From a virus (taxonomy: Duplodnaviria; Caudoviricetes), in IMG/VR virus record IMGVR_UViG_3300011116_000547, positions 1 through 59,636 of that record: a stretch of 59,636 nt of DNA; one strand, given 5' to 3'. The notes beneath the pieces were generated by a model. The model ran no database searches, had not been told where the DNA came from, and was given only the letters and a program-made list of their open reading frames with translations. Positions 128 through 50,465 of this stretch are shown here, in pieces; positions within the stretch are counted from its first letter, which is position 1; every line of letters starts with the position of its first letter. A program made the position numbers and the translations under genes.

Positions 128-312
128 TGGCTCTTGATGACGGCAATTTTGCAGCTCAGCCTAATAATCGTATTCTGTGGAGTATTCCTAGCTTTACAAC
201 TTCAACACACTGGCCGGATTATAAAGTGCAAACTACAGAGTGGAATGTTGAAAATAAAAACTGGAAATTAGAAGATACTGATGATATGTTTTATCAAGTG
301 GAGGATAAATGA
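1..312 (+). CDS. 3' part of conserved hypothetical phage protein spanning the junction (total about 216 aa)
   Basis: Frame LNKNKKFIYGEYLFTIDWAHPEPN...QVEDK* continues the frame opened by ATG at 59171. Confidence 0.85.
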   Translation, partial: LNKNKKFIYGEYLFTIDWAHPEPNIIDTEHSEIPDQHKCAHVLALDDGNFAAQPNNRILWSIPSFTTSTHWPDYKVQTTEWNVENKNWKLEDTDDMFYQVEDK

Positions 313-659
313 GCAGTGAATTTAAATTAAGTGATCAAACAAGTGTAGCGCTACCTATTAAAAATATAGTTGCTATTGTATCTGCTATTGTTGTAGCAGT
401 GTGGACTTATTTTGGTATTGTTGAAAGGCTTAATAGACTTGAAACTAATGAAAAATTAATGGCACAAGACCTTTTAAAGAAGGCAGAACAAACTCCAAAA
501 AATCAAGAGATGTATATGTTAATTGAATATCAAGCTAAAGCATTAGACAAACACTCTAAACAATTAGAAGAAAACGTTCACACTAAAGTATTAATAGCTC
601 AATTAGAAAAGAAAGTAGATAAACTAGAAAAAGAATTAGATTCATTACGAGGTAAGTAA
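309..659 (+). CDS. Membrane-anchored coiled-coil protein (possible lysis accessory/spanin-like)
   Basis: One N-terminal TM segment then heptad-rich helix; GAGG RBS; lies upstream of two cell-wall hydrolases. Confidence 0.6.
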   Translation: MSSEFKLSDQTSVALPIKNIVAIVSAIVVAVWTYFGIVERLNRLETNEKLMAQDLLKKAEQTPKNQEMYMLIEYQAKALDKHSKQLEENVHTKVLIAQLEKKVDKLEKELDSLRGK

Positions 660-871
660 TGATTGAAATAGTATTTGCATTATTGATGTACATGAATAAT
701 AAGTTAGAAGGATATTCTCCAAAAAATAATCTTGCAGAATGTTTGGAACAAAAAAGAAAAGTAGAACGAGACCCAGGCACTAATGTAAACTGGAGCTGTA
801 AAGAAGTAAAAGCCATTATAGAAACTGATAAACATGGCGTCAAACGAATTAAAGAAGTTAAACAAGACTAA
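659..871 (+). CDS. Small exported-type protein with two Cys
   Basis: TAATG coupling, GAGGT RBS, hydrophobic N-terminus. Confidence 0.6.
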   Translation: MIEIVFALLMYMNNKLEGYSPKNNLAECLEQKRKVERDPGTNVNWSCKEVKAIIETDKHGVKRIKEVKQD

Positions 872-924
872 TTGTATTAACAACCTAGCAGTTGGATGCT
901 GCCTCTCAAATTACTGTAAATGTT

Positions 925-1530
925 ATGATAACAAAGATTACGTTAATAAAATATTTGATAGTAGCTCTAGTAGCATTTGTATTAGGTACATTCTTCCCCA
1001 ACCCCGCCGCCAAGAGGAAGGTTCAGGTTGATACGATCAACTGGGCCACAAAACTCGGGTTTGGTATCCCGAGGTTTGAGTACTCAAACAACAAAGAATT
1101 CATCTCTTCTCTCACCAACTGTATCAATTATCTAAATTTCAATATCCCAAGACGACAAAGAGTAAACACAGAACTAATAATAGCGCAGGCTATCGTTGAA
1201 TCTAACTATGGAACATCTCGGTTTGCAAGGGAAGGCCACAATCTGTTTGGTATACGAGTATGGTCGAAAGAAGGTATGTTGCCACATAAACAACCAGATA
1301 CCATAGAATGGAGAGTTAGGGTCTTTAAAAGCAAATGCGAATCTGTTAGATATTACATAGAAATTCTAAATACAAAAAGAGTGTATGCAGAGTTTAGAAA
1401 AATTAGAGAGATCACATTAAATAAAGATCCTATTCTAATGGCAAAAGCTTTAGATAATTTTTCTACAAACAAAGAATACGAAAAACATGTTATTGAAGTT
1501 ATAGTTAAATTAAGAAATGAAACTAAGTGA
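925..1530 (+). CDS. GH73 glucosaminidase/Bax-like peptidoglycan hydrolase with N-terminal membrane anchor
   Basis: AQAIVESNYGTSRFA..HNLFGIR motif; TM segment YLIVALVAFVLGTFF; start at 925 chosen over 892. Confidence 0.8.
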   Translation: MITKITLIKYLIVALVAFVLGTFFPNPAAKRKVQVDTINWATKLGFGIPRFEYSNNKEFISSLTNCINYLNFNIPRRQRVNTELIIAQAIVESNYGTSRFAREGHNLFGIRVWSKEGMLPHKQPDTIEWRVRVFKSKCESVRYYIEILNTKRVYAEFRKIREITLNKDPILMAKALDNFSTNKEYEKHVIEVIVKLRNETK

Positions 1531-1972
1531 AAATTTTACATTAGATGAATTAACAAAGTCTCAAGAAGCAATAAGACTTGGAATAGATAATACACCAAAC
1601 GATGAGCATATCACTAATTTAATATTACTTTGTAAAAATATTCTTCAACCAATTAGAAATCATTTTAAAATTCCAGTATCAATATCTTCAGGTTACAGAT
1701 CAGCAGCTTTGTGTGAAGCCATAGGTTCATCATCAACGAGTCAACATACCAAGGGACAAGCAGCAGACTTTGAACTGTTTGGCATACATAACAGAGAGGT
1801 TAGTGATTGGATCGTTCAAAATTTAGATTTTGATCAATGTATACTTGAATTCTGGACTCCAAGTGATCCTAATTCTGGATGGATCCATTGCAGTTATAAC
1901 GATGCAGGCAATAGAAAATCTTATTTGAGCGCACAGAAATTAAATGGTAGAGTTGTATACACAGTAATGTAA
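1517..1972 (+). CDS. Peptidase M15 endolysin
   Basis: LSENFTLDEL, SSGYRS, SQH..GQAAD and WIHCSY zinc-binding motifs. Confidence 0.88.
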   Translation: MKLSENFTLDELTKSQEAIRLGIDNTPNDEHITNLILLCKNILQPIRNHFKIPVSISSGYRSAALCEAIGSSSTSQHTKGQAADFELFGIHNREVSDWIVQNLDFDQCILEFWTPSDPNSGWIHCSYNDAGNRKSYLSAQKLNGRVVYTVM

Positions 1973-14239: not shown

Positions 14240-15181
14240 ATGATTGAGAAAAAAATTAGTTACGAGATTAACATTGAAAAACCAAGTAAGACAAAACCTG
14301 TTAAACAAGGTGGAGTTTTAAATTATTTAGGAAAACAAAAAACAGTTAATGCTCCAGTTAAATGGAGATCATCACCTAAACATCCTATTGCACATCTTTC
14401 CTATATTACAAAAGATGAAGAAAAAATTTTAATAGATTTAAATTTATATGGTTCACTAAAAGGTAAACCCAACAGAGGTCCATTTGGACTTCCATCATTA
14501 CAAGGATCAGGTGGTGGCGCTGGCGGTGGAGACGGAGGCGGCGGTGGAGACGGAGGCGGCGGTGGAGATTCAGGAGCATCAGATAGTGGACCAGGAGGAT
14601 CAGATGATGGAACTGGACATGGGGGACCAGGACCAGGAGATTCAGGAGTATCAGGACCAGGTGGATCAGAAGGATTCGGCACTGACACTGGACCAGGGCC
14701 AGGAGAAGCAGCAGGAATGGGAGGACCATCAGGACCAGGTGGAACAGAAGGATTTAGTACTGACACTGGACCAGGACCAGGTGAGGCAGTTGGAATGGGT
14801 GAACAATCTGGAATTTCTGCAGCAGTAAATGCTGTGAATCAAGCAGTTCAAAATGCTGTAAATCAAGCAGTTCAAAATGCTGTGAATAATCCTGTTGCAA
14901 CAGCTGTTGGAATTATTGGAGGACCTGTTGCCGGAATGGTCGCAAATGCAATTAGCTCTGCTGTAAGTGCTGCTAACAGAGGAGCAACTGGACCAAGTGA
15001 TGATACTCAAGAAACTTCTTCAGTTCAAACTGGACCAGCAACTAGTACATCTACTGATGGAGGAATAACTACATTACCTCAATATGCACCATTATATAAT
15101 CAAGCAACAGGGGATCCTTTACTAGATTCATTAATTGCAAGATACAGAGCTAATATATCTCCTTCTTCTTTTGGAGTATGA
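14240..15181 (+). CDS. Gly/Pro/Asp-rich low-complexity protein, probably virion-internal
   Basis: N-domain HLSYITKDEEKIL..GPFGLPS; GGGGD and GPGG repeats; AVNQAVQN repeats. Confidence 0.75.
   Translation: MIEKKISYEINIEKPSKTKPVKQGGVLNYLGKQKTVNAPVKWRSSPKHPIAHLSYITKDEEKILIDLNLYGSLKGKPNRGPFGLPSLQGSGGGAGGGDGGGGGDGGGGGDSGASDSGPGGSDDGTGHGGPGPGDSGVSGPGGSEGFGTDTGPGPGEAAGMGGPSGPGGTEGFSTDTGPGPGEAVGMGEQSGISAAVNAVNQAVQNAVNQAVQNAVNNPVATAVGIIGGPVAGMVANAISSAVSAANRGATGPSDDTQETSSVQTGPATSTSTDGGITTLPQYAPLYNQATGDPLLDSLIARYRANISPSSFGV
14505..14890 (+). repeat. Coding tandem repeats (GGCGGTGGAGACGGAGGC; 23-codon SGPGG.EGF.TDTGPGPGEA.GMG duplication; AVNQAVQN)
   Basis: Visible in DNA and translation. Confidence 0.85.
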
Positions 15182-15327
15182 TGAAAAAATTAACAACAAC
15201 TATACCACCTAAATCAGGTCCTAACCCACAGGGCTTGAATGTTACGTATAATAAGGTTAAGATAGTAAGTTCGGAGAAATTAAATGGCAACTATAGACAA
15301 GTCACTTCCAAACGAAGTTACAAATAA
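15178..15327 (+). CDS. Small basic protein with PPKSGPNPQGL motif
   Basis: GGAG RBS, ATGA coupling; overlaps portal start. Confidence 0.6.
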   Translation: MMKKLTTTIPPKSGPNPQGLNVTYNKVKIVSSEKLNGNYRQVTSKRSYK

Positions 15328-17749
15328 GATTGAAATAGAGAGTCCAGAAGCTGCAACTGAAGAAATTGTAGAACTTCAAGAATCTATTCCAGATATAGGT
15401 AACACAGAAATTACACCAACAGCAGATGGTGGAGTTGAAATTAATTTTCAACCAGGAGCTTTTAATCAAGGCGAAAGTGTAAATCATTTTGATAATTTAG
15501 CAGAGTTATTACCAGAAAATATTTTAGGACCTTTAGGTTCAGAACTTTATCAAAACTTTGAAGACTATAAAAATTCAAGAAGAGATTGGGAACAAACTTA
15601 TACTCAAGGTTTAGATTTACTTGGATTTAAATATGATCAAAGAACAGAACCATTTCAAGGAGCATCAGGTGCAACTCATCCAGTATTAGCAGAAGCTGTA
15701 ACACAGTTTCAAGCATTAGCTTACAAAGAATTATTACCAGCAGATGGACCAGTTAGAACACAAATAATTGGAAACTCTTCAAGAGAAAAAGAAGATCAAG
15801 CAACTCGTGTTAGAGATTTTATGAACTATCAGATTATGGATGTCATGAAAGAATATGAACCAGAGTTTGATCAAATGTTATTTTATTTACCACTATCAGG
15901 ATCTACATTTAAAAAAGTTTATTATGATGATTTACTTGGTAGAGCTGTTTCAAAATTTGTACCAGCAGAAGATTTAGTAGTTCCTTATGCAGCAACATCA
16001 TTAGATGATGCAGAAGCAATTATGCATGTTATAAAAATTTCTGCAAATGAATTAAGAAAACAACAAGTAGCTGGATTTTACAAAGATATAGATTTATTGC
16101 CAAGTGATGATTCTGTCACTGAAGCAGATGATGTAAAATCAAAAGAAAGAGAAATCGAAGGAGTCACTAAATCAGGTAATGAAGATATCTTTACTTTAAT
16201 TGAGTGTCATGTAAACTTGGATCTCGAGGGCTTTGAAGATCGTGATCCCAACGGGGAAATGACTGGAATTAAACTTCCTTATATCGTGACGATAGAAGAA
16301 GGCTCTCGTGAAATTTTATCTATTCGTAGAAATTACGAAATAGGTGATCCTAAAAAAAATAAAATTCAATATTTTGTTCATTTTAAATTTTTACCTGGTT
16401 TAGGATTTTATGGATTTGGATTAATTCATATGATTGGTGGTTTATCAAGAACAGCCACATCAGCATTAAGACAATTAATTGATGCAGGAACTTTATCTAA
16501 TTTACCTGCAGGATTTAAAATGCGTGGTATTAGAATTAGAGATGATGCTCAATCTATTCAACCTGGTGAATGGAGAGATGTAGATGCTCCTGGAGGAAAC
16601 TTAAGAGATGCATTTATGACTTTACCATACAAAGAACCGTCACAAACTTTATTAGCATTAATGGGGGTCGTGGTTCAAGCAGGTCAGCGCTTTGCTTCAA
16701 TTGCTGACATGCAAGTAGGGGATGGGAATCAGCAAGCAGCAGTGGGCACGACCGTGGCTTTGCTGGAAAGAGGAAGCAGAACAATGTCTGCAATTCACAA
16801 AAGATTATACTCATCACTTAAATTAGAATTTAAATTATTATCAAGAGTATTTAAATTATATTTACCTGAAGAATATCCATACGATGTTGTAGGTGGAGAA
16901 AAAAATATTAAACAAGCAGACTTTGATGATAGAATAGATATTGTTCCAGTTGCTGATCCAAATATATTTTCTCAAACACAAAGAATTAGTTTAGCACAAA
17001 CTGAATTACAACTTGCTCAATCTAATCCACAAATTCATAACTTATATGAAATTTACAGAAAAATGTATGAAGCATTAGGTGTAAAAGATATTGATAAAAT
17101 TTTAATTCAACCTGCAAAACCAACTCCTAAAGATCCGGCATTAGAACATATTGATGCATTAGGTGGACAACCTTTCCAAGCATTTAGAGGACAAGATCAT
17201 AGAGCACATATCACTGCGCATTTAAATTTTATGTCAACTAATATTGCAAAAAATAATCCAATGATAATGGGATCATTAGAGAAAAATATTTTTGAACATA
17301 TTTCTTTAATGGCTTTAGAACAAGTTGAATTAGAATTTGCACAAGAGTTACAACAAATACAAATTTTATCTCAAAATCCTCAAGCAGTACAAGATCCTGC
17401 AATTCAAGCACAGGTTCAAGAGTTTCAAATGAAATTAGAATCTAGAAAAGCAATCTTAATAGCTGAGATGATGGATGAATTTATGAAGGAAGAGAGAAAA
17501 ATAACTTCTCAATTTGATAATGATCCTATTGCTGCATTAAAATCTAGAGAACTTGACCTACAAGCTCAAGAAAATAGTAGAAAAAAACAAGAGGGACAAG
17601 AAAGAATCAATCTAGACAAGATGAGAGCTATGATGAATCAGATGAATACACAAGAAAAACTGCAACAAAATGAAGATTTAGCTGAATTAAGGGCTGCAAC
17701 ATCTATTGCAAAACAGCAATTTTCTAATATGAATAAGAAAATACAATAA
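15284..17749 (+). CDS. Portal protein
   Basis: 821 aa after terL; HPVLAEAVTQFQA, GSTFKKVYYD, FYGFGLIH; long C-terminal coiled-coil barrel. Confidence 0.9.
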   Translation: MATIDKSLPNEVTNKIEIESPEAATEEIVELQESIPDIGNTEITPTADGGVEINFQPGAFNQGESVNHFDNLAELLPENILGPLGSELYQNFEDYKNSRRDWEQTYTQGLDLLGFKYDQRTEPFQGASGATHPVLAEAVTQFQALAYKELLPADGPVRTQIIGNSSREKEDQATRVRDFMNYQIMDVMKEYEPEFDQMLFYLPLSGSTFKKVYYDDLLGRAVSKFVPAEDLVVPYAATSLDDAEAIMHVIKISANELRKQQVAGFYKDIDLLPSDDSVTEADDVKSKEREIEGVTKSGNEDIFTLIECHVNLDLEGFEDRDPNGEMTGIKLPYIVTIEEGSREILSIRRNYEIGDPKKNKIQYFVHFKFLPGLGFYGFGLIHMIGGLSRTATSALRQLIDAGTLSNLPAGFKMRGIRIRDDAQSIQPGEWRDVDAPGGNLRDAFMTLPYKEPSQTLLALMGVVVQAGQRFASIADMQVGDGNQQAAVGTTVALLERGSRTMSAIHKRLYSSLKLEFKLLSRVFKLYLPEEYPYDVVGGEKNIKQADFDDRIDIVPVADPNIFSQTQRISLAQTELQLAQSNPQIHNLYEIYRKMYEALGVKDIDKILIQPAKPTPKDPALEHIDALGGQPFQAFRGQDHRAHITAHLNFMSTNIAKNNPMIMGSLEKNIFEHISLMALEQVELEFAQELQQIQILSQNPQAVQDPAIQAQVQEFQMKLESRKAILIAEMMDEFMKEERKITSQFDNDPIAALKSRELDLQAQENSRKKQEGQERINLDKMRAMMNQMNTQEKLQQNEDLAELRAATSIAKQQFSNMNKKIQ

Positions 17750-17781: not shown

Positions 17782-18153
17782 ATGGTTATGAAAATGACAA
17801 AATCACAAAAAAAGATTGGTAAAGTAATGAGAGAGTTCAAAAAAGGTGAACTTAACATTGGTCAATCAAAACAAAAAGTAAAAAATCCTAAACAAGCAAT
17901 TGCTATTGCATTGTCGGAAGCTGGAAAAAGCAGAAAACAAATGGCAGTAGGCGGATTAGCTAATGCAACAAGAACTTTTACTGCTGATTCAAAAGCAAAA
18001 GAAGTAAATCATTCAAAATTTACTGATGCTCAAGGTTATTTAGTTGGCGGAGTAGATGTTGAAATGTCAAATCCTCAAGAAACTCAAGTTCAAGAAGTAC
18101 AAGGTCAAGGAAGCGTCCTTTCAGAAAAAAGAAGATCAGCAAAGTGGTATTAA
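17782..18153 (+). CDS. Small basic head-region protein (KVMREFKKG...KQAIAIALSEAG)
   Basis: AAGGAG RBS; carries xxGG and C-terminal QGQG..KWY motifs. Confidence 0.75.
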   Translation: MVMKMTKSQKKIGKVMREFKKGELNIGQSKQKVKNPKQAIAIALSEAGKSRKQMAVGGLANATRTFTADSKAKEVNHSKFTDAQGYLVGGVDVEMSNPQETQVQEVQGQGSVLSEKRRSAKWY

Positions 18154-18156
18154 GTT

Positions 18157-18585
18157 ATGATTCAAATGCTAGGAGCTGTTGCACCTCTTGCAAAAATCCT
18201 ATTTAATACAATTGAAAAGTCCGTTCCTGATAAAGATCTTCAAGAAAAATTAAAAGCACAATTACAAACACAACTACTACAATCTAATACACAAGAATTA
18301 CAAGCTGCAGCTAAAATAGTCGAAGCTGAAGCAAAGGCGGGATGGTTTGCATCATCTTGGAGACCTTTACTAATGTATGTCTTAATATTTATTTTAGTTT
18401 GGAACTATGTTATAGGACCAGTTATAAAAGTATTCACAGGAGCTGTTATCTCCTTTGAATTACCTGGTGACGTTTGGACTTTATTAAACGTTGGATTAGG
18501 TGGTTATGTGGTGGGTCGTTCTGCTGAATCTGTTGCAAGAACTTTAGCTAATAGACCTGTAAATAAAGAACAAGAAAATGGATAA
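18157..18585 (+). CDS. Holin, GTA 3TM-like
   Basis: PDKD..KLK, AEA...SSWRP, TM segments, LGGYVVGRSAE. Confidence 0.75.
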   Translation: MIQMLGAVAPLAKILFNTIEKSVPDKDLQEKLKAQLQTQLLQSNTQELQAAAKIVEAEAKAGWFASSWRPLLMYVLIFILVWNYVIGPVIKVFTGAVISFELPGDVWTLLNVGLGGYVVGRSAESVARTLANRPVNKEQENG

Positions 18586-18594
18586 GGAGTTAAC

Positions 18595-18807
18595 ATGAGA
18601 AACGACTACGGAATAAGACCAAGAGCAAAATTAAAAAAAGGTAGTTTTCCAGATTTAAATAAAGATGGAAAAATTACTAAAGCCGATATTTTAAAAGGAA
18701 GAAAAGTTCCTGGTTTTAAAAAAGGTGGTATGTCAAAAAAAGCCGATATGATGACAAAAGATATGTCTGAAAAGAAAAAAGGCAAAATGATGAAGAGTAA
18801 AAGATAA
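18595..18807 (+). CDS. Small basic protein with EF-hand-like loop
   Basis: DLNKDGKITKAD; FKKGG; AAGGAG RBS. Confidence 0.7.
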   Translation: MRNDYGIRPRAKLKKGSFPDLNKDGKITKADILKGRKVPGFKKGGMSKKADMMTKDMSEKKKGKMMKSKR

Positions 18808-19013
18808 TGGGTGATATTGCACTTAGAGGACAAGGAAGAGCTCTTTTAAAGAAAGGTAACAAAGCCATAGATATGTCTGAAGAACATGAGAGTATGGAAT
18901 CCGAAGCTGAAGAAGCTGAGGAGTATGAAATGGAAGAAGAAGGTTATGAAGAAACCGAATCAGGCAAAATGGTAAAGAAGAAGAAAAAAAATAAAAAAAA
19001 GAAGAAAAAATAA
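18807..19013 (+). CDS. Small protein: MGDIALRGQGRA leader, acidic block, poly-Lys tail
   Basis: TAATG coupling; N-terminus shared with 20004. Confidence 0.7.
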   Translation: MGDIALRGQGRALLKKGNKAIDMSEEHESMESEAEEAEEYEMEEEGYEETESGKMVKKKKKNKKKKKK

Positions 19014-19226
19014 ATGGGTAAATCTAAAAGAAAACAATTTATTGATTTAGCTAGAAAAGGTGGAACAAGACAAGATTTTATTGATCTTGCCGAAGAACTT
19101 GAAGTTGGTGGAACAAAAGAAGATGAAGTTGTTGTTCCAATACAACCAGCTGAACCAAAACCTCCAGGTAAAGCTAAAGGTGGATTGATTAGAGGTTTAC
19201 CAAAAATTGCATTGAGAGGTTATTAA
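19014..19226 (+). CDS. Small head-region protein
   Basis: KAKGGLIRG..IALRGY. Confidence 0.7.
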   Translation: MGKSKRKQFIDLARKGGTRQDFIDLAEELEVGGTKEDEVVVPIQPAEPKPPGKAKGGLIRGLPKIALRGY

Positions 19227-19477
19227 TGGCTAAACTTTGTCCAAAAGGAAAAGCTGCTGCAAAAAGAAAATTTAAGGTCTATCCGAGTGCCTATGCAAAT
19301 ATGTATGCATCAGCAGTTTGTTCTGGAAAAATAGTTCCTGGTGGACGTAAGAAAAAAGCAGAAGGTGGAAGTATTTCTCAGGAAAGAAAAATGGTATCTA
19401 ATTATAAACAAGGTGGAATAGCTAAAGGTTGCGGGGCAGTTTTAGAAAATAGAAGAAAAGTAACTAAAAAATATTAA
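19226..19477 (+). CDS. Small basic head-region protein
   Basis: AAKRKFKVYPSAYAN; AEGG, YKQGG, KGCGAV..TKKY. Confidence 0.72.
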   Translation: MAKLCPKGKAAAKRKFKVYPSAYANMYASAVCSGKIVPGGRKKKAEGGSISQERKMVSNYKQGGIAKGCGAVLENRRKVTKKY

Positions 19478-19478
19478 T

Positions 19479-19757
19479 ATGGCACAAAACGGTCTTAGAA
19501 AATGGGTTGCGGAAAAATGGGTTGATATTGGATCAAGACGTAAAGATGGTTCATTTGCTCCATGTGGAAGATCTAAAGGAGAAAAAAGAAAAGGTTATCC
19601 AAAATGTGTGCCACTAGCAAAAGCTAGAGCAATGTCAGAATCTCAAAGAAGATCTGCTGTTCAAAGAAAAAGAGCTGCAGGAAATACTGGACCTAAACCT
19701 ACTAATGTTAAAACTTTTGCAAATAGAAAAGATATGAGATCAGGAGGATTAGTATAA
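19479..19757 (+). CDS. Small basic head-region protein
   Basis: LRKWVAEKWVDI..CGRS..YPKCVP; ends MRSGGLV. Confidence 0.75.
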   Translation: MAQNGLRKWVAEKWVDIGSRRKDGSFAPCGRSKGEKRKGYPKCVPLAKARAMSESQRRSAVQRKRAAGNTGPKPTNVKTFANRKDMRSGGLV

Positions 19758-20002
19758 TGGCTGGTGATAAATATTACAAAGCTGAAAAAGCAAGACAAAA
19801 AAAATTTAGAGAAGCTGAAAAAGAGATGGATGAAAATTATAAAAAAGTTCGTAGAGAAGAATCTGAATTTGAATATTTAAATTCATTATTTCCAGAAGAT
19901 TCAACACGAGAATATAATCCAGTTGAGCATTATAAAGATGGTGGATTAGTAAGTAGAGGACAAGGAAGAGTTATTAAAAGTAAAAAAACTAAAATGTATT
20001 AA
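19757..20002 (+). CDS. Small head-region protein
   Basis: YKDGGLVSRGQGRVIKSKKTKMY. Confidence 0.72.
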   Translation: MAGDKYYKAEKARQKKFREAEKEMDENYKKVRREESEFEYLNSLFPEDSTREYNPVEHYKDGGLVSRGQGRVIKSKKTKMY

Positions 20003-20003
20003 T

Positions 20004-20330
20004 ATGGGTGATATTGCATTAAGAGGACAAGGTAGAGCAATGCTTGCATCAGGATCAACTCCAGCATGGCAACGTAAAGAAGGTAAATCTGAATCCGGTG
20101 GATTAAATAGAAAAGGTATTGCATCTTATAGAGCTGCTAATCCTGGATCTAAATTATCAATGGCAGTTACAACAAAGCCTTCTAAATTAAAACCAGGTTC
20201 TAAATCTGCTAAAAGAAGAAAATCATTTTGTGCTAGAATGAAAGGCATGAAAAAAAGATTAACATCAGCTAAAACTGCAAGAGATCCGAATTCAAGAATT
20301 AATAAATCTCTACGTAAGTGGAATTGTTAA
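20004..20330 (+). CDS. Small very basic head-region protein
   Basis: AWQRKEGK..GGLN.KG, RRKSFCARM, SRINKSLRKWNC. Confidence 0.75.
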   Translation: MGDIALRGQGRAMLASGSTPAWQRKEGKSESGGLNRKGIASYRAANPGSKLSMAVTTKPSKLKPGSKSAKRRKSFCARMKGMKKRLTSAKTARDPNSRINKSLRKWNC

Positions 20331-20353: not shown

Positions 20354-20605
20354 ATGGATGCAGTCACGTTTTTAAGTAAATTACAGAAGTTTATTAGGGA
20401 TCAATACCAAGGCATTGGTGATTCTATGATATCTGGTAATGTTGACAGTATGGAAAAATACAAGTATATGCAAGGACAGGCAAATGCCTACCAAACAGTA
20501 ATTCAGGAAATCTCTAACCTGCTAAATGAAGGAGCAAAAAAAGATGATAAAGGAAACGTTATCGACCTCGGAAAAGGAAGTTCCAAAGATAAACCTAGGT
20601 CTTGA
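20354..20605 (+). CDS. Conserved hypothetical protein preceding GroES
   Basis: AAGGAG RBS; SG.VDSMEKYKYMQG. Confidence 0.75.
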   Translation: MDAVTFLSKLQKFIRDQYQGIGDSMISGNVDSMEKYKYMQGQANAYQTVIQEISNLLNEGAKKDDKGNVIDLGKGSSKDKPRS

Positions 20606-21011
20606 AGAAAAGTATAAGGAACAAAAAGTAGTAGAAGATAAAACAGTAAGAGCAGAAAATATTACTGAATCTTTAATTGATAGTTTACCTCAACCGTCTG
20701 GTTGGAGACTATTAGTTTTACCATTTACACCTAAAGATAAAACTTCAGGTGGATTAATCATATCACAAGAATCTTTAGACAAAGCACGAATCGCAACTAA
20801 TTGCGGTTATGTTTTAAAGATTGGACCATTAGCTTATTTGGATAAAGAAAAATATCCAACAGGCCCATGGTGCAAGGAAAAAGATTGGGTGATCTTTGCC
20901 AGATACGCTGGTTCAAGACTTCCAATCGAAGGCGGTGAAGTTCGTCTATTAAATGACGATGAAGTCTTAGGGACAATTAAAAATCCTGAAGATGTACTTC
21001 ACTATATATAA
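20544..21011 (+). CDS. groES: GroES-like co-chaperonin with N-terminal extension
   Basis: LPQPSGWRLLV..TSGGLII..VLKIGP..DWVIFARYAG..LLNDDEVLG. Confidence 0.85.
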   Translation: MIKETLSTSEKEVPKINLGLEEKYKEQKVVEDKTVRAENITESLIDSLPQPSGWRLLVLPFTPKDKTSGGLIISQESLDKARIATNCGYVLKIGPLAYLDKEKYPTGPWCKEKDWVIFARYAGSRLPIEGGEVRLLNDDEVLGTIKNPEDVLHYI

Positions 21012-21027
21012 ACCATAGGAGAAAACT

Positions 21028-22038
21028 ATGCCAGAAGACAAAAACGCAAAGACTGTTGACATAGATACATCAGGTCCAGGAGCCGAGGTCGAATTAGACG
21101 TAAAGCAACCTGAATCAAACGAGATAGAGGTATCAAATGAAAAGGACAACGTTAAGTCCATTGACACAGTTGCGGAATCTAATGAGCAACCTGTTGTTAA
21201 GGCAGATAAACAAGAAACAGAAAACAAGGACCAAGGAACAGAAATAGCGTCCGAAGATACAGATAACAAGAAAGAATTAGAAGACTATAGTGAAGGTGTT
21301 AAAAAGAGAATTGCAAAATTAACCAAGAAAATGCGTGAAGCTGAAAGACAGCGTGAAGCTGCCATTGAGTATGCACGTAAAATTCAGGTTGAAAAAGATT
21401 CTCTAGCTGGAAGACTTACCAAATTAGATACAGGTTATGTATCTGAAATGGAAAGAAGAATTAAATCATCCATGGAATCAGCTGCTGCTAAATTAGCACA
21501 AGCTAGAGTTGATGGGGATTTAAAAGCTGAAATCGCCGCACAAACTGAAATATCTAAATTAGGATATGAAGAAGCAAGACTTCTTGATCTTAAATCTAGA
21601 CAATCAGAAGCAAAGGAAGTTGAACCAAAAATTCAACTAAATCAACAACAAGCTGTTCAACAAGAACAACCTATAACTCCAGACCCTAAAGCTCAAAATT
21701 GGGCTCAAAAAAATACGTGGTTTGGACAAGATGAGGCAATGACGTACACAGCCTTTGGATTACACAAAAAACTTGTGGAAGAAGAAGGATATGATGCTCA
21801 AAGTGACGAATATTATGCAGAAATTGATAAAAGAATAAGACTTGAATTTCCGCATAAATTTGCTACAACATCACAAACGATAACTGCAAAACCAGTTCAA
21901 AATGTAGCTTCGGCTAATAGAAGTGGAAAAAACAGTAATCGCAAAACTGTGAGACTCACGCCTTCTCAAGTAGCTATTGCTAAAAAATTAGGTGTGCCAC
22001 TTGAAGAATATGCGAAACATATAATCACGAAGGAGTAA
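21028..22038 (+). CDS. Capsid scaffolding protein
   Basis: Acidic N-terminus, coiled coil, C-terminal LTPSQVAIAKKLGVPLEEYAK; upstream of MCP. Confidence 0.75.
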   Translation: MPEDKNAKTVDIDTSGPGAEVELDVKQPESNEIEVSNEKDNVKSIDTVAESNEQPVVKADKQETENKDQGTEIASEDTDNKKELEDYSEGVKKRIAKLTKKMREAERQREAAIEYARKIQVEKDSLAGRLTKLDTGYVSEMERRIKSSMESAAAKLAQARVDGDLKAEIAAQTEISKLGYEEARLLDLKSRQSEAKEVEPKIQLNQQQAVQQEQPITPDPKAQNWAQKNTWFGQDEAMTYTAFGLHKKLVEEEGYDAQSDEYYAEIDKRIRLEFPHKFATTSQTITAKPVQNVASANRSGKNSNRKTVRLTPSQVAIAKKLGVPLEEYAKHIITKE

Positions 22039-22509
22039 ATGCATATGGAAAAAAACAAAAATATTAAGACCCCTCGTGCGAGCCAAACTAGGACTACTGA
22101 AAAGAGACCTACAACTTGGACTCCACCGTCATCTTTAGATGCACCGCCAGCACCAGATGGTTTTAGACATAGATGGATTCGTACTGAAGTTTTAGGCTTC
22201 GACGATACCAAAAATATGACTGGTAAAATGAGATCAGGATGGGAGCTTGTAAGAGCTGACGAATATCCTGGATCCATTTACCCTGAAATCAAAGATGGTA
22301 AATATGCGGGTGTTATCGGAGTTGGTGGCCTTGTGTTGGCAAGGATACCGGAAGAGATCGCAAAATCTCGTGAAGCTTACTTTAGGAAACAAATAGAAGC
22401 TCGTGAGGAAGCAATTGAAAACGATCTTTATAAGGATCAACACAAAAGTATGCCTATCAATAGTGAGAGGCAGACTCGTGTAACTTTTGGTGGTACGAAC
22501 AAAAAGTAA
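22039..22509 (+). CDS. Conserved head-module protein
   Basis: WTPPSSLDAP..GFRHRWIR..GWELV..GGLVLARIP. Confidence 0.75.
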   Translation: MHMEKNKNIKTPRASQTRTTEKRPTTWTPPSSLDAPPAPDGFRHRWIRTEVLGFDDTKNMTGKMRSGWELVRADEYPGSIYPEIKDGKYAGVIGVGGLVLARIPEEIAKSREAYFRKQIEAREEAIENDLYKDQHKSMPINSERQTRVTFGGTNKK

Positions 22510-22560
22510 TTTTTTGGCAATACCAACGAAGTAAAAATAAACTTAAACAAGGAAAAAACT

Positions 22561-23130
22561 ATGGCTAATAGAAGCTCAGTAGGCTTCGGTCTTAGACCGA
22601 TTGGCAAAGTTGGTCAAAATAGAGACGCCCAAGGTTTAACTGAATACCTAGTAAGTGATAGTCCAACTATCATTTATTTTAACGATGCTGTAAAAGCTAC
22701 AAACGAAGGAACAATCGCTGTAGCTGGTGGAACAGATAAGTTATTAGGATCACTAAACGGTGCGTTCTATACTGACCCAACAACTCAAAAACCGACATGG
22801 AGGAATTATGTACCTTCGGTTGCAGCGACAGATATCGTTGCATTCGTAAGTGATGATCCTTATGAAAGATTTGAGATCAGATCAAATAACACAGGCGCTT
22901 CAGCAACTAGCGATATCTTCAACAATGCAGATATCACTTATTTAGCTGGGGACTCAGCAAACTACGTATCAAGAAGCAGATTGAATGATGCTACTTTAAG
23001 CACAAATTCAGCTCAACTTCAGATACTTGGTTCAACAAAAGATACTGGTGACAATAATATCACTCAATCACACGTTGTGTGGGTTGTGAGAATTAATGAA
23101 CATCAGTTAACATCTACAACAGGAGTATAA
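22561..23130 (+). CDS. Capsid decoration/cement-type protein
   Basis: MAN..FGLRP; beta-rich; immediately upstream of MCP. Confidence 0.65.
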   Translation: MANRSSVGFGLRPIGKVGQNRDAQGLTEYLVSDSPTIIYFNDAVKATNEGTIAVAGGTDKLLGSLNGAFYTDPTTQKPTWRNYVPSVAATDIVAFVSDDPYERFEIRSNNTGASATSDIFNNADITYLAGDSANYVSRSRLNDATLSTNSAQLQILGSTKDTGDNNITQSHVVWVVRINEHQLTSTTGV

Positions 23131-23134
23131 GAAT

Positions 23135-24040
23135 ATGGCTATCTCAAGAGGACAACTAGTTAAAGAACTAGAACCAGGATTGAATGCTTTATTCGGCCTG
23201 GAGTACAAACGTTATGAAAATCAACATCTAGAAATCTTTGATGTAGAAACTTCTGACAGAGCTTTTGAAGAAGAAGTAATGTTATCAGGTTTCGCAAATG
23301 CTCAAATTAAACCAGAAGGTTCTGGCGTTACATTTGACAATGCTCAAGAAACATTCACAGCTAGATACACTCATAACACTATAGCACTTGCTTTCTCAAT
23401 CACTGAAGAAGCGATTGAAGACAACTTGTATGACAGACTTGCATCTCGTTATACAAAAGCATTAGCAAGATCTATGGCAAACACTAAGCAGGTAACGGCT
23501 GCTAACGTATTAAACAATGCGTTTTCAAGCTCTTATCCAGGTGGAGATGGTCAACCTTTATTAGACCAAGCTCACCCTACTATTGCTGGTTCATTTAGAA
23601 ATGAACTTGCAACTGCTGCTGACTTAAACGAAACTTCATTAGAACAGTCATTGATTGATATCAATGCGTTTACTGATGAACGTGGTTTAAAGATTGCTGC
23701 AAGAGGTGTTAAATTAATTATTCCAAGTGAATTACAATTCACAGCGGAAAGATTAATGGCAACTCAAGGTAGAACTGGTACTGCTAATAACGATATCAAT
23801 GCAATCAAATCTATGGGAATGATTCCACAAGGTTATGTGGTTAACAATTTCTTAACTGATTCTGATGCATTCTTTATCAAAACTGACGTTCCAAACGGTA
23901 TGAAGATGTTCGTAAGAGCAGCTATCAAAACGTCTATGGAAGGTGATTTTGATACTGGTAACGTTAGATACAAAGCTAGAGAAAGATACAGCTTCGGCTG
24001 GTCTGACCCTAGAGGTTTGTTTGGCTCACCAGGTGCTTAA
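23135..24040 (+). CDS. Major capsid protein (Mu gpT-like family)
   Basis: MAISRGQLVKELEPGLNALFGLEY..ITEEAIEDNLY..RERYSFGWSDPRG; biased high-expression codons. Confidence 0.9.
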   Translation: MAISRGQLVKELEPGLNALFGLEYKRYENQHLEIFDVETSDRAFEEEVMLSGFANAQIKPEGSGVTFDNAQETFTARYTHNTIALAFSITEEAIEDNLYDRLASRYTKALARSMANTKQVTAANVLNNAFSSSYPGGDGQPLLDQAHPTIAGSFRNELATAADLNETSLEQSLIDINAFTDERGLKIAARGVKLIIPSELQFTAERLMATQGRTGTANNDINAIKSMGMIPQGYVVNNFLTDSDAFFIKTDVPNGMKMFVRAAIKTSMEGDFDTGNVRYKARERYSFGWSDPRGLFGSPGA

Positions 24041-27071: not shown

Positions 27072-27716
27072 ATGACATATTCAGAATTAGTTACAAAAAT
27101 TAGAGATTATACAGAAGTAGACTCAAATGTATTTACTTCAACTATTATAAATGGATTTATTCAAGATGCTGAATTTAGAATATTGAGAGATGTAGATTCT
27201 GATAATAATAGAAAATATGCAACATCTTCAGTTGTAATAACTCAAAAATATTTCACAGTTCCAGATAACTGTTTAATTATTAGATCTGTACAAGTATTTA
27301 ATACTGATGGAAGTATATCTTTTTTAGATGTTAGAGATATGACATTTATTAATGAATATAATCAAAGTAATACAACAGGAATACCTAAATATTATGCTAA
27401 CTGGGATGAAAATACAGTTATTGTGGCTCCAACTCCAGATCAAGCTTATACAATTCAAGCAAATTATATCTTGAAACCAACTGGATTATCTAGTACAAAC
27501 ACGACTACATATTTAAGTCAGCAGTTTCCCAATGGCTTATTATATGCTTGCCTAGTTGAGGCATATGGGTTCTTAAAGGGTCCACAAGATATGTTGCAAT
27601 ATTATGAAAATAGATATAAGCAAGCTATCGAAGGATTCTCATTAGAACAAATGGGAAGAAGACGAACTGATGAGTTTCTAGATGGAGAACCTCGTATAGT
27701 TCGTAAACCACAATAA
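27072..27716 (+). CDS. Head-tail connector/adaptor protein
   Basis: MTYSEL..FIQDAE.RI..GIPKYY..APTPD..LLYACLVEA. Confidence 0.72.
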   Translation: MTYSELVTKIRDYTEVDSNVFTSTIINGFIQDAEFRILRDVDSDNNRKYATSSVVITQKYFTVPDNCLIIRSVQVFNTDGSISFLDVRDMTFINEYNQSNTTGIPKYYANWDENTVIVAPTPDQAYTIQANYILKPTGLSSTNTTTYLSQQFPNGLLYACLVEAYGFLKGPQDMLQYYENRYKQAIEGFSLEQMGRRRTDEFLDGEPRIVRKPQ

Positions 27717-49394: not shown

Positions 49395-49967
49395 ATGAAT
49401 AAACTTTTAGTACATAAACATTTAATTGTTCGTGCCGAAGCTAAAAATCCTCCAATGGATGTTGCTGTTCTTCGTAAATGGTTTCAAAAATTTATAAATG
49501 AAATTGGAATGAAAGTGATGATGGGTCCTTATATTAAATATTCTCACATGGTGGGTAATCGTGGTATTACTGGAGCTGCAATCATAGAAACTTCCCACAT
49601 AGTAATGCATGTATGGGACGAACCTGACCCCGCCTTATTACAATTTGATGTTTACTCTTGTGGTGAATTTGATCCTGAAACAATATGCAATAAGATAAAG
49701 AAAGATTTTAATACAACAAAAATAGAATATAAATTTTTAGATCGTGAACATGATCTACAAGAAATACACACTTTAACATACACAGATCCAATAGTTAAAA
49801 ATTATGAAAATAAAGAAATAGAAAAGAAAAATAATGCATTACTAAAAAGTAGAAAAGAAGTCGAGATTAATGGAAGTGGTACACATGGATATAGAATTAA
49901 AGAAGGTGTTCATAAAGGCACAGTTGTTGGCCATATTACAAGAGAAAAATCTGTACTTGAAAATTAA
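49395..49967 (+). CDS. speD: Pyruvoyl-dependent S-adenosylmethionine decarboxylase family proenzyme
   Basis: HLI, GITG..IIETSHIVMHVWDE, FDVYSCG; substrate not certain. Confidence 0.8.
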   Translation: MNKLLVHKHLIVRAEAKNPPMDVAVLRKWFQKFINEIGMKVMMGPYIKYSHMVGNRGITGAAIIETSHIVMHVWDEPDPALLQFDVYSCGEFDPETICNKIKKDFNTTKIEYKFLDREHDLQEIHTLTYTDPIVKNYENKEIEKKNNALLKSRKEVEINGSGTHGYRIKEGVHKGTVVGHITREKSVLEN

Positions 49968-49983
49968 TAAATAATCATTATAT
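49956..49983 (+). promoter_or_regulatory. Possible RpoH (sigma32)-type promoter for hsp20
   Basis: CTTGAA-N15-ATTATAT upstream of hsp20. Confidence 0.45.
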
Positions 49984-50042
49984 ATTCCCTTGGTTGCATC
50001 ATGTGGATGGACCAATTAACTTGCTTAACAAAGGAGATAATT

Positions 50043-50465
50043 ATGACAAACCTAGAAGTTTTCAATAATTTAAGCAAACAAATGTTCAATGGATCAACAA
50101 AGTTTTTTGATGATGCATTTGAAAATATTTTTGACACGTGGTCAAAAGTACAATCATTCCCTTTCTATAACGTAGTAAAATACTCAAAAGGTAAATACGG
50201 ATTAGAAATCGGTTTAGCTGGCTACAATAAAGAGAATGTACTTGTAGAAGTTAAAGACGGTATCTTAACAGTAGAAGGAAAAGTAGATAATAAAAATGTA
50301 GACTATATTAAACAAGGTCTAGCATTTAGACAATTTTTCAAACAGTTTGAATTAGCTAAAGATGTAATAGTTGATGAAGCTGAAATGAAAGATGGTTTAC
50401 TTAAAATTAAATTTGGTTTTAACGAACCTAAAGAAATTGAAGGCGTTAAAATAAACATTAAATAA
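50043..50465 (+). CDS. Small heat-shock protein Hsp20
   Basis: FPFYNV..LAGY..LTVEG..GLAFRQF..F.L..AEMKDGLLKI; AAGGAG RBS before 50043. Confidence 0.9.
   Translation: MTNLEVFNNLSKQMFNGSTKFFDDAFENIFDTWSKVQSFPFYNVVKYSKGKYGLEIGLAGYNKENVLVEVKDGILTVEGKVDNKNVDYIKQGLAFRQFFKQFELAKDVIVDEAEMKDGLLKIKFGFNEPKEIEGVKINIK

Follow-up and report, generated by a model that had tools for sequence, protein, structure and literature searches.

A portable terminal peptide on small lysine-rich proteins encoded beside the portal gene of HTVC023P-type pelagiphages, and its possible role in head docking

The viral record IMGVR_UViG_3300011116_000547 (Duplodnaviria; Caudoviricetes; referred to here as the window) is a whole phage genome of 59,636 bp with direct terminal repeats, and is estimated to be complete. 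Downstream of its portal gene, nine plus-strand open reading frames (ORFs; O1 to O9) occupy positions 17782–20330, and five of these encode unrelated small proteins that begin or end with a version of one short peptide, termed the tag. Comparison with related viral loci gives good support to the tag as a portable, flexible terminal peptide that has spread from one gene end to another in this lineage; it is under purifying selection at the amino-acid level, not at the DNA level. With regard to function, a role as a signal docking small proteins in the assembling head is tentatively favored below over binding to the membrane, binding to nucleic acid, or an action on translation. The locus had been singled out in a prediction made from the DNA letters (hereafter, the original prediction), which described swappable address or cleavage tags on diverse virion cargo.

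The island between the portal and GroES-like genes encodes eight small charged proteins, where the original prediction had counted seven, and one membrane protein (L followed by a number denotes a locus used for comparison):

17782..18153 (+): O1, DUF6496 N-terminal module (PF20106, E 4.1e-10) fused to the small protein PHP (described below), with a full C-terminal tag at 18100–18150
18157..18585 (+): O2, holin-type membrane protein, 3 nucleotides (nt) after O1 (PF11351 GTA_holin_3TM, E 1e-15; phrog_3427 holin, E 2.9e-26)
18595..18807 (+): O3, Lys-rich protein (isoelectric point, pI, 10.6) with FKKGG and an EF-hand/dockerin-like loop (Dockerin_1, E 0.015, and EF-hand_5, E 0.031, both sub-threshold); untagged
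18807..19013 (+): O4, short N-terminal tag at 18810–18848 (profile match E 9.8e-06, residues 3–18), acidic block, and poly-Lys tail
19014..19226 (+): O5, tag variant at the end (GGL..IALRGY, 19170–19223), seen in the sequence; a similar variant ends the orthologues in L004, L006, and L012
19226..19477 (+): O6, “YPSAYAN” two-Cys helical module (phrog_27331, E 4.2e-26, residues 1–44) with a full C-terminal tag at 19403–19474
19479..19757 (+): O7, DUF5872-like two-Cys basic module with GGLV at the end (phrog_23735, E 5.3e-34; PF19197, E 0.035, sub-threshold)
19757..20002 (+): O8, charged protein with a full C-terminal tag at 19928–19999 (profile match E 1.8e-05); orthologues in L004, L006, and L012
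20004..20330 (+): O9, short N-terminal tag at 20007–20045 and a DUF6321 module (PF19846, E 1.7e-17, above cut-off)

Successive ORFs are spaced by 3, 9, −1, 0, −1, 1, −1, and 1 nt, seven of the nine products have a pI of 9.2–11.7, and the Lys content is 13.4% in the island versus 8.2% elsewhere in the genome. O4 matched no family in Pfam or PHROG, and none could be assigned from these databases to O5 or O8; in the Protein Atlas, O8 matched only unnamed viral clusters. The loop of O3, which had been described as EF-hand-like, has only a sub-threshold Pfam match, although the loop pattern itself recurs in 16 unique island ORFs among the relatives.

The tag follows a composite motif: [aromatic]-x-x-G-G-hydrophobic, then [R/K/Q]-G-x-G-x-[A/V]-hydrophobic, and then a polybasic run with Tyr or Phe as the last residue. 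All three parts are present in O6 and O8 and the last two in O1, while O4 and O9 begin with the middle part and O5 and O7 end in truncated variants. The full form, with the final aromatic residue, is therefore found at the C-termini of O1, O6, and O8, and the short form at the N-termini of O4 and O9; the first 12 residues of these two proteins are identical and contain the core RGQGRA, an element that the C-terminal tags have too. The strings quoted in the original prediction were all present where it had placed them, namely the hydrophobic-x-x-GG motif (MAVGG in O1, FKKGG in O3, KAKGG in O5, KAEGG and YKQGG in O6, MRSGG in O7, and YKDGG in O8), IALRG in O4, O5, and O9, and the C-terminal tag in O1, O6, and O8.

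These motifs were compared with 10000 composition-preserving shuffles of the eight soluble island proteins (695 amino acids, aa). The middle element, G[QC]G[SAR][VA][LIM], occurs five times versus 0.00 expected (reached in 0/10000 shuffles) and IALRG three times versus 0.00, and neither is found in the other 18237 aa of the genome. GG[LIMV] is observed eight times versus 1.18 expected (0/10000 shuffles) and [FYM]..GG six times versus 0.62 (1/10000), while plain GG is only mildly enriched (12 versus 6.85; 259/10000). Because the patterns were written after the data had been seen, these figures are optimistic, and more weight is therefore put on the relatives as an independent test.

The nearest named relatives of the window are Pelagibacter phages HTVC027P (70% nucleotide identity across 63% of a 6.7-kb query), 023Pt_psg01, and HTVC023P, and the window is therefore assigned to the HTVC023P-type pelagiphages. 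This group, which includes the viral single-amplified genome (vSAG) 37-F6, has been reported as the most abundant known group of marine viruses (bioRxiv 10.1101/2019.12.14.876532), and its capsid protein is reported to dominate the Tara virion metaproteomes (PMC5490008). A portal query returned 600 pattern matches, 599 of which are relatives, and the best 80 of these 599 related viral contigs were kept; the complete interval from the portal to a conserved 83-aa protein downstream of the island is present in 32 of the 80 loci. Across these 32, the island is 1517–3559 nt long and has 5–11 ORFs of changing content between two conserved borders.

A tag profile, built from the five tags of the window and iterated once, gave 60 matches at E<0.001 in the 80 loci; all are in the portal-to-GroES island (36516 aa), and the flanking ORFs (103068 aa) and portal sequences (67859 aa) have none. 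Unique island ORFs contain the middle element 35 times (1.9 expected), and it is found three times outside the island (2.7 expected); [FYM]..GG is less specific, being enriched inside the island (160 versus 30.7) and also about two-fold outside it (153 versus 73.1). The motif sharing that had been noted at this locus is confirmed. In the complete genomes of HTVC027P, 023Pt_psg01, HTVC023P, HTVC203P, and Skadi-5, there are two profile matches, both in the islands of the first two phages. An annotation gap in 023Pt_psg01 (L002:4887-5081; MW574966.1, ~27156-27350) holds a 64-aa unannotated ORF that joins a YPSAYAN module to a tag.

The position of the tag is strict. In 65 tagged proteins (E<0.1), it lies within six residues of the C-terminus in 59, at the N-terminus in six, and internally in none; the full tail is C-terminal in 59/59 cases, which amount to about six independent contexts. 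With the tag removed, the tagged proteins fall into seven cargo clusters (BLASTP). In an alignment of 21 YPSAYAN proteins, the 40-residue head is invariant and the tails vary freely, and several modules exist in both tagged and untagged form, as counted here over unique island copies:

YPSAYAN module: 13 tagged (and one loosely), 10 untagged
DUF6496 module: 8 tagged, 20 untagged
DUF6321 module: 2 tagged (and three loosely), 28 untagged
DUF5872-like module: 0 tagged, 23 untagged
EF-loop module: 0 tagged, 16 untagged
GLYANI module: 0 tagged, 14 untagged

The same tag is found on unrelated proteins, and the same module with and without a tag, in agreement with the modular, portable character originally proposed. 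In five tag groups, the ratio of nonsynonymous to synonymous differences per site (pN/pS) is 0.23–0.42 while pS is 0.27–0.58. The two N-terminal tags of the window (O4 and O9) are identical at 29/33 nt, versus 26.8 expected for identical peptides given the codon usage of the genome. The tags are predicted to lie in flexible, unpacked segments of low confidence: the AlphaFold (AF2) model of O9 (mean predicted local distance difference test, pLDDT, 76.5) has tag residues 1–17 near or below 50 and a helical domain from residue 20, and that of O6 has pLDDT 72–80 for residues 1–40 and 45–51 for residues 41–83.

The only tag bearer found throughout the group is PHP, a protein of ~57–75 aa which is fused to DUF6496 in O1 and encoded separately from it in L014, L015, and L072. 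Its tail consists of Gly-x-Gly, a hydrophobic pair, and a polybasic stretch closed by an aromatic residue, and the invariant columns of the PHP alignment (V43, G45, and K53) all fall within this tail. The tail closes 34 of the 38 unique proteins encoded directly upstream of the island membrane gene, all except those of L076, L080, and L082 and a variant in HTVC023P. When the family was searched with a 60-aa PHP alignment, 3286 cluster representatives were found at E<=1 among 3854 candidates of 30–105 aa, all without annotation. There are also 134 longer forms with a PHP tail, and 94 among the 120 listed are DUF6496 fusions like O1. Twelve of the longer proteins without DUF6496 were read: seven are in-frame fusions of PHP to the membrane protein (two with an intact tail), two are chimeras of PHP and a portal C-terminus, and three are other forms. 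One PHP-membrane fusion cluster has 10 member sequences on two contigs (metagenomic ORFs), and some of these fusions may be assembly or frameshift artefacts.

The membrane protein that follows PHP belongs to either of two families, PF11351/phrog_3427 (as in the window) and phrog_2524, which have no detectable similarity (BLASTP E 2.8). They alternate at the same slot in sister phages (e.g., window 18157–18585 versus L015:8715-9098), a case of non-orthologous replacement. As O2 had no tblastn match in annotated phages, the alternative occupant, phrog_2524, was used to search phage records; it is present in 38, including 26 from various types of Pelagibacter phage. The phrog_2524-type gene directly follows the endolysin in HTVC033P, HTVC200P, and Greip, and the slot after PHP is therefore taken to be a holin slot. 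Nearly identical PHP tails pair with both unrelated membrane families; specific binding between tail and holin, considered as a candidate function, is therefore disfavored, and the independence of the tail from the membrane-protein family fits a receptor that does not vary. Taken together, the island is well supported as a hyperplastic late-gene slot that contains both the PHP-membrane pair and stand-alone small basic modules.

Several side observations concern the holin slot. The lysis genes of the window are split: 16 kb separate a spanin-like pair and an M15_3 endolysin, located at the left end, from the holin-type gene that follows the portal. HTVC010P-type phages encode, just downstream of their lysis/membrane genes, a 45–49-aa polybasic protein ending in ..RGQGK or ..LGQGR (L084:3331-3480, L085:3056-3205, L089:3056-3193), which possibly echoes the tag core. 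In the same phages, two genes named “peptidase M15” (L084:2842-3273, HTVC203P gp31; L085:2546-2977, Skadi5_50) read as membrane proteins (phrog_38283, unknown function); neither has an M15 match in Pfam (0 families), and the product names look wrong.

The stand-alone modules have relatives in other marine phages. DUF6321 occurs in 501 phage records, 367 of them Synechococcus, 59 “Cyanophage,” 41 Prochlorococcus, and 22 Pelagibacter, and it is located at or near the C-terminus of at least 7988 longer proteins, together with DUF5872, DUF192, DUF3008, cytidylyltransferase-like, and Zeta/AAA domains. One such protein is gp29 of cyanophage S-SCSM1 (L093:4663-6216), a string of a DUF5872-like module, a YPSAYA-type module, a CW..PNCV module, a Cys-rich stretch, and DUF6321. 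It is named “virion protein” in its record, where its neighbors are named “hypothetical protein”; in S-SCSM1, 45 proteins, 13 of them of unknown function, are reported to have been detected by mass spectrometry in CsCl-purified virions (PMC9602691). O9 matches the C-terminus of gp29 at 76% identity over 88 aa (E 2.3e-27), O7 matches it at 39% over 56 aa (E 2e-05), and O6 only at E 0.011. These similarities make a good case that the DUF6321 module of O9 is a stand-alone copy of a module strung into multi-module virion proteins of marine T4-like phages; the DUF5872-like module of O7 is plausibly another, and the YPSAYAN module of O6 might be a third. Sequence searches of solved structures with O1, O6, and O9 gave nothing below E 1, and a fold search with the O9 model gave no PDB match (best E 7.9) and only other DUF6321 proteins in the viral library, which led to S-SCSM1. 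Fusion and fission of modules are frequent, as in a tagged fusion of an acidic part with DUF6496 in L022 and a DUF5872-like module with an extra tail module in 023Pt. A 1244-aa DUF6321 protein (P0032) was considered as a polyvalent protein, but the ParB-like and zincin motifs seen by eye had no Pfam support at E<=0.01; its confirmed domains are cytidylyltransferase-like, Zeta/AAA, and DUF6321.

Where DUF6321 is fused to other modules, its border has a recurrent joint. In 121 fused DUF6321 proteins with 114 module starts, [LIVM]-x-E stands one to three residues upstream of the start in 107/114, in 75 distinct upstream contexts, and the looser [LIVMFAY]-x-E is found at 112/114 junctions versus 14.5% of all 8-residue windows in the same proteins. 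As T4-type head proteases are reported to cut after Glu (PMC5694885), this joint would fit cutting by such a protease in the phages that have one. In the window, the O6, O7, and O9 modules are separate ORFs and not one jointed polypeptide, and O9 has a short tag upstream of the module start in place of the hydrophobic-x-Glu joint, with the same module border.

In this lineage, recombination has transferred the tail of PHP to the C-terminal ends of other modules, and two N-termini have received its core. In the reading we favor, the peptide would act as an uncleaved docking signal. During head assembly it would tether the proteins that carry it to a single conserved component (the capsid interior, the scaffold, or the portal); small Lys-rich proteins would then already be trapped when DNA enters the procapsid, and would leave with that DNA. 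A podovirus lacking a protease would thereby use separate genes with a retained end-tag, where T4-like phages use an N-terminal targeting peptide and protease-cut polyproteins. This reading is favored because of the position of the operon, the relationship between DUF6321 and a virion protein, the strictly terminal position of the tag, its independence from the membrane family, and the precedent of the T4 internal proteins, which are described as diverse and having only a targeting peptide as a common feature (PMC3012670, PMC5694885). As in the original prediction, no prohead protease was found: searches of the complete genome with PF10123, PF04586, PF01343, and PF03420 gave no match at E<=1 for any of the four. 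An uncleaved tag that docks on a conserved head component and so loads small Lys-rich proteins is possible rather than probable, with both docking and presence in the virion inferred. The wider proposal is rather doubtful: an abundant phage group would load small Lys-rich effector or DNA-condensing proteins protease-free through a retained C-terminal docking peptide (with a short form at N-termini) that is moved between cargo genes by recombination and read by a conserved head component, as a second, independently evolved capsid-address system beside that of T4.

A number of observations weigh against docking in the head. PHP is followed by the membrane gene at a spacing of 1–5 nt in 34/43 cases by pattern and in at least 42/43 by sequence reading and tblastn, and where the gene order differs (L001, L057, L066, L069) it stays with the membrane gene and not with the portal. 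The in-frame PHP-membrane fusions indicate that a free C-terminus is not always needed. In HTVC010P-type pelagiphages, the modules are untagged and are located behind the lysis genes instead of the portal, and the DUF6321 protein of P-SSM4 lies among replication genes. Most module proteins in the relatives are without a tag, including 28 of the 33 unique island copies of DUF6321. A profile-level tag is lacking in 11 of the 32 complete islands, whose PHP tails belong to a divergent variant; 12 islands have a single tag, and just nine have more (two in four islands, three in two, four in two, and five only in the window). The “address code” applies to few proteins in most relatives, although the motif itself is real; one tagged protein per island is typical, and the window is the extreme. 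The receptor is putative; a complex prediction of capsid protein, scaffold, and the PHP tail region scored 0.00 in a run without controls, which counts neither in favor of binding nor against it. No virion proteome of an HTVC023P-type phage was found in the literature. As to what the original prediction had inferred, the address role of the tag is hypothetical, and its universal bearer, PHP, is tied to the holin-type gene and not to the capsid gene; the idea of virion cargo gains from the virion-protein relative of DUF6321 and loses from the DUF5872-like, EF-loop, and GLYANI modules, which are never tagged.

The tie to the holin slot leads to an alternative that we consider unlikely but the strongest of the competing ones, in which the tail is a peripheral membrane anchor and PHP works at the inner membrane with the following holin (e.g., in lysis timing), with other proteins that acquire the tail being brought there. 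Basic-aromatic tails are able to bind membranes, and the pairing of one tail with two unrelated membrane proteins suits lipid binding better than specific protein binding. The near-constant order of PHP and the membrane gene in essentially all loci with room downstream, the seven fusions, the holin assignment of O2, the endolysin-adjacent position of phrog_2524 genes in other phages, and the same small modules kept after the lysis genes in HTVC010P-type phages would also be accounted for. However, four regions with a phrog_2524-type gene were read among the 26 Pelagibacter phage records and had no PHP-like neighbor, so the holin does not need PHP. The tail furthermore has few hydrophobic residues, this function would give no reason for virion-type modules at the membrane, and the fusions are weakened as evidence by possible artefacts, by an altered tail in five of the seven, and by the two further ORFs that join PHP to the portal instead.

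Also unlikely, and ranked next, is that the tail is one more mini-module, a polycationic nucleic-acid-binding end without any address role, in an island that shuffles modules by fusion and fission. The Lys content and high pI of the island products are in line with this, as are the frequent module rearrangements, the many DUF6496 fusions among the longer PHP-tail proteins, and the report that lysines of T4 internal proteins contact DNA phosphates (PMC3012670). Free shuffling would, however, be expected to place the full tail elsewhere too, whereas it is C-terminal in every case and in about six independent contexts, and the conserved Gly-x-Gly, hydrophobic pair, and final aromatic residue exceed what charge alone would need.

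A cis-acting role is quite improbable: here the C-terminal peptide would act on the ribosome, or through termination-reinitiation, to set the output of the next coupled gene, and its reader would be the host ribosome. At junctions after C-terminally tagged ORFs (in the window, e.g., 18151–18159, 19475–19481, and 20000–20006), the next gene starts 1–5 nt past the stop and almost never has a Shine-Dalgarno-like motif of its own. Across the relatives, such a motif follows C-terminally tagged ORFs at 2/46 unique junctions versus 107/220 after untagged island ORFs, and 40/46 tag junctions are spaced by at most 5 nt; together these suggest obligatory termination-reinitiation coupling. Only the last 17–24 residues are conserved, right up to the stop codon; a 33-nt repeat (family D4) that spans stop and start is common to the O6/O7 and O8/O9 junctions; and a cis effect would explain why neither the identity of the cargo nor the family of the downstream protein matters. 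On the other hand, there are only about five to six independent junction types, the missing ribosome-binding motif may be a by-product of encoding a polybasic tail, the N-terminal copies are left unexplained, and the fusion forms keep the tail internally; to our knowledge, the tail contains no known arrest motif. In the window, the last codons of O5, which ends in a truncated variant, double as a Shine-Dalgarno-like AGAGG 6 nt ahead of the O6 start.

It is very improbable that the shared strings are recombination scars, DNA-level junctions, or GG cut sites without a peptide function: the motifs do lie at gene ends in a mosaic region and a 35-nt direct repeat (91% identical) joins the O4 and O9 starts, but synonymous sites diverge while the peptide is kept and the identity of the N-terminal tags is near the codon-usage expectation (on both of which the DNA-level version was rejected), and the cleavage at GG that had been proposed has neither a prohead protease family in the complete genome nor GG coinciding with module borders.

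Among known systems, the island would work most like the T4 internal-protein locus (IPI, IPII, IPIII, and Alt), by analogy and not as a member of it. As described for T4, small, basic, diverse proteins of a variable locus have only a short terminal peptide in common, which loads them onto the scaffolding core before they exit with the DNA (PMC3012670, PMC5694885); in the island, seven unrelated cargo clusters of a length-variable locus have a common terminal peptide. The gp21 protease removes the T4 peptide, which is N-terminal, whereas the full tag lies at the C-terminus, shows no sequence relationship to it, and is apparently retained; a gp21-type protease (PF03420) is absent from the matches, and the window phage is a podovirus with an SU10-type portal. 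The multi-module virion proteins of marine T4-like cyanophages such as S-SCSM1 gp29 resemble the island in DUF6321 (O9), in the DUF5872-like module, and weakly in the YPSAYA-type module, but there the modules are fused through hydrophobic-x-Glu joints and in the window they are separate genes. MuF/SPP1 gp7-type polyvalent proteins are described as occupying a post-portal slot with variable, probably packaged effector modules (PMC5512222); the window has 0 matches to the MuF domain (PF04233) and has separate small genes instead of one large protein.

Short, flexible, portable docking peptides at protein termini are also familiar inside HK97-fold shells, in the cargo-loading peptides of encapsulins and the C-terminal targeting tails of the HK97 protease and the P22 scaffolding protein, with the cargo genes near the shell gene. 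Here, the capsid gene is 3 kb downstream with other genes between, and the likeness carries no claim about sequence. In comparison with a holin/lysis cassette, a holin-family membrane protein is present (O2) and an adjacent endolysin is not (1517–1972, 16 kb from O2). Holins may have a small cytoplasmic partner of antiholin type, as the T4 holin has RIII, and PHP is likewise small, soluble, adjacent to and translationally coupled with a holin-type gene, and occasionally fused to it; it differs in showing no homology, in the distance of the endolysin, and in that the same tail is found on non-lysis proteins.

Hardly any virion proteins of HTVC023P-type phages are assigned. An address role for the tail would reveal which proteins these phages carry inside the head and offer a simple means of directing proteins into their capsids; a membrane or translational role would bear on lysis timing in SAR11 infections. 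Either way, the island links separate podovirus genes to the protease-jointed polyproteins of T4-like phages, and one cargo repertoire with two ways of delivery is a testable proposition. What is new here is the split-gene, protease-less form of the modules with its own end-tag, and its tie to the holin slot. In the accessible parts of the published literature on HTVC023P-type phages, DUF6321, DUF5872, DUF6496, and DUF3008, no description of the island, PHP, or the motif was found; for DUF6321, no paper was found, and one Chrysochromulina virus genome paper, in its accessible part, names DUF5872 alone among these four domains.

The gene order around the island is terminase large subunit, Gly-rich 313-aa protein, portal, the nine-ORF island, 83-aa protein, GroES-like protein, scaffold-like protein, two conserved unknowns, and Mu gpT-like capsid protein, and no plus-strand terminator-like site was found between the portal and GroES. 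The flanking features are:

309..1972 (+): two spanin-like small genes (321–868, homologues of HTVC200P gp048 and gp049) and an M15 endolysin (1517–1972; Peptidase_M15_3, E 1.4e-18; 58% identity to Greip gp54), far from O2
15284..17749 (+): portal of SU10 type, the upstream border of the island (phrog_1216, E 3.9e-82; PF23899 SU10_portal, E 8.6e-17)
20354..21011 (+): downstream border, the conserved 83-aa protein (phrog_32603, E 9e-30) and the GroES-like gene (Cpn10, E 1.6e-07; phrog_3188), with an 80-nt overlap
21028..24040 (+): scaffold-like protein (phrog_8865, E 5.8e-04), two conserved unknowns, and the major capsid protein (PF25209, E 2.8e-13, Mu gpT-like)

The GroES-like ORF overlaps the 83-aa gene in a different frame; its Cpn10 match covers nothing before residue 57, so translation of GroES may actually start further downstream. 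PF14756, which is reported for HTVC027P gp34 (PMC12753301), has 0 matches in the window. The 313-aa protein in the terminase-portal interval (14240–15181; no Pfam or PHROG family) has a long low-complexity center of Gly, Asp, Ser, and Pro and an N-terminal GG-hydrophobic motif, and its N-terminal part resembles portions of 391–712-aa island proteins in L057, L066, and L069 that end in GGLA..F[RK]VK. Additionally, at the end of the late genes (49395–50465), an S-adenosylmethionine decarboxylase-like gene of polyamine synthesis (phrog_3125, E 1.8e-17) adjoins an Hsp20 gene (phrog_432, E 3.1e-27); in T4, polyamines and Lys-rich internal proteins are both reported to neutralize the packaged DNA (PMC3012670).

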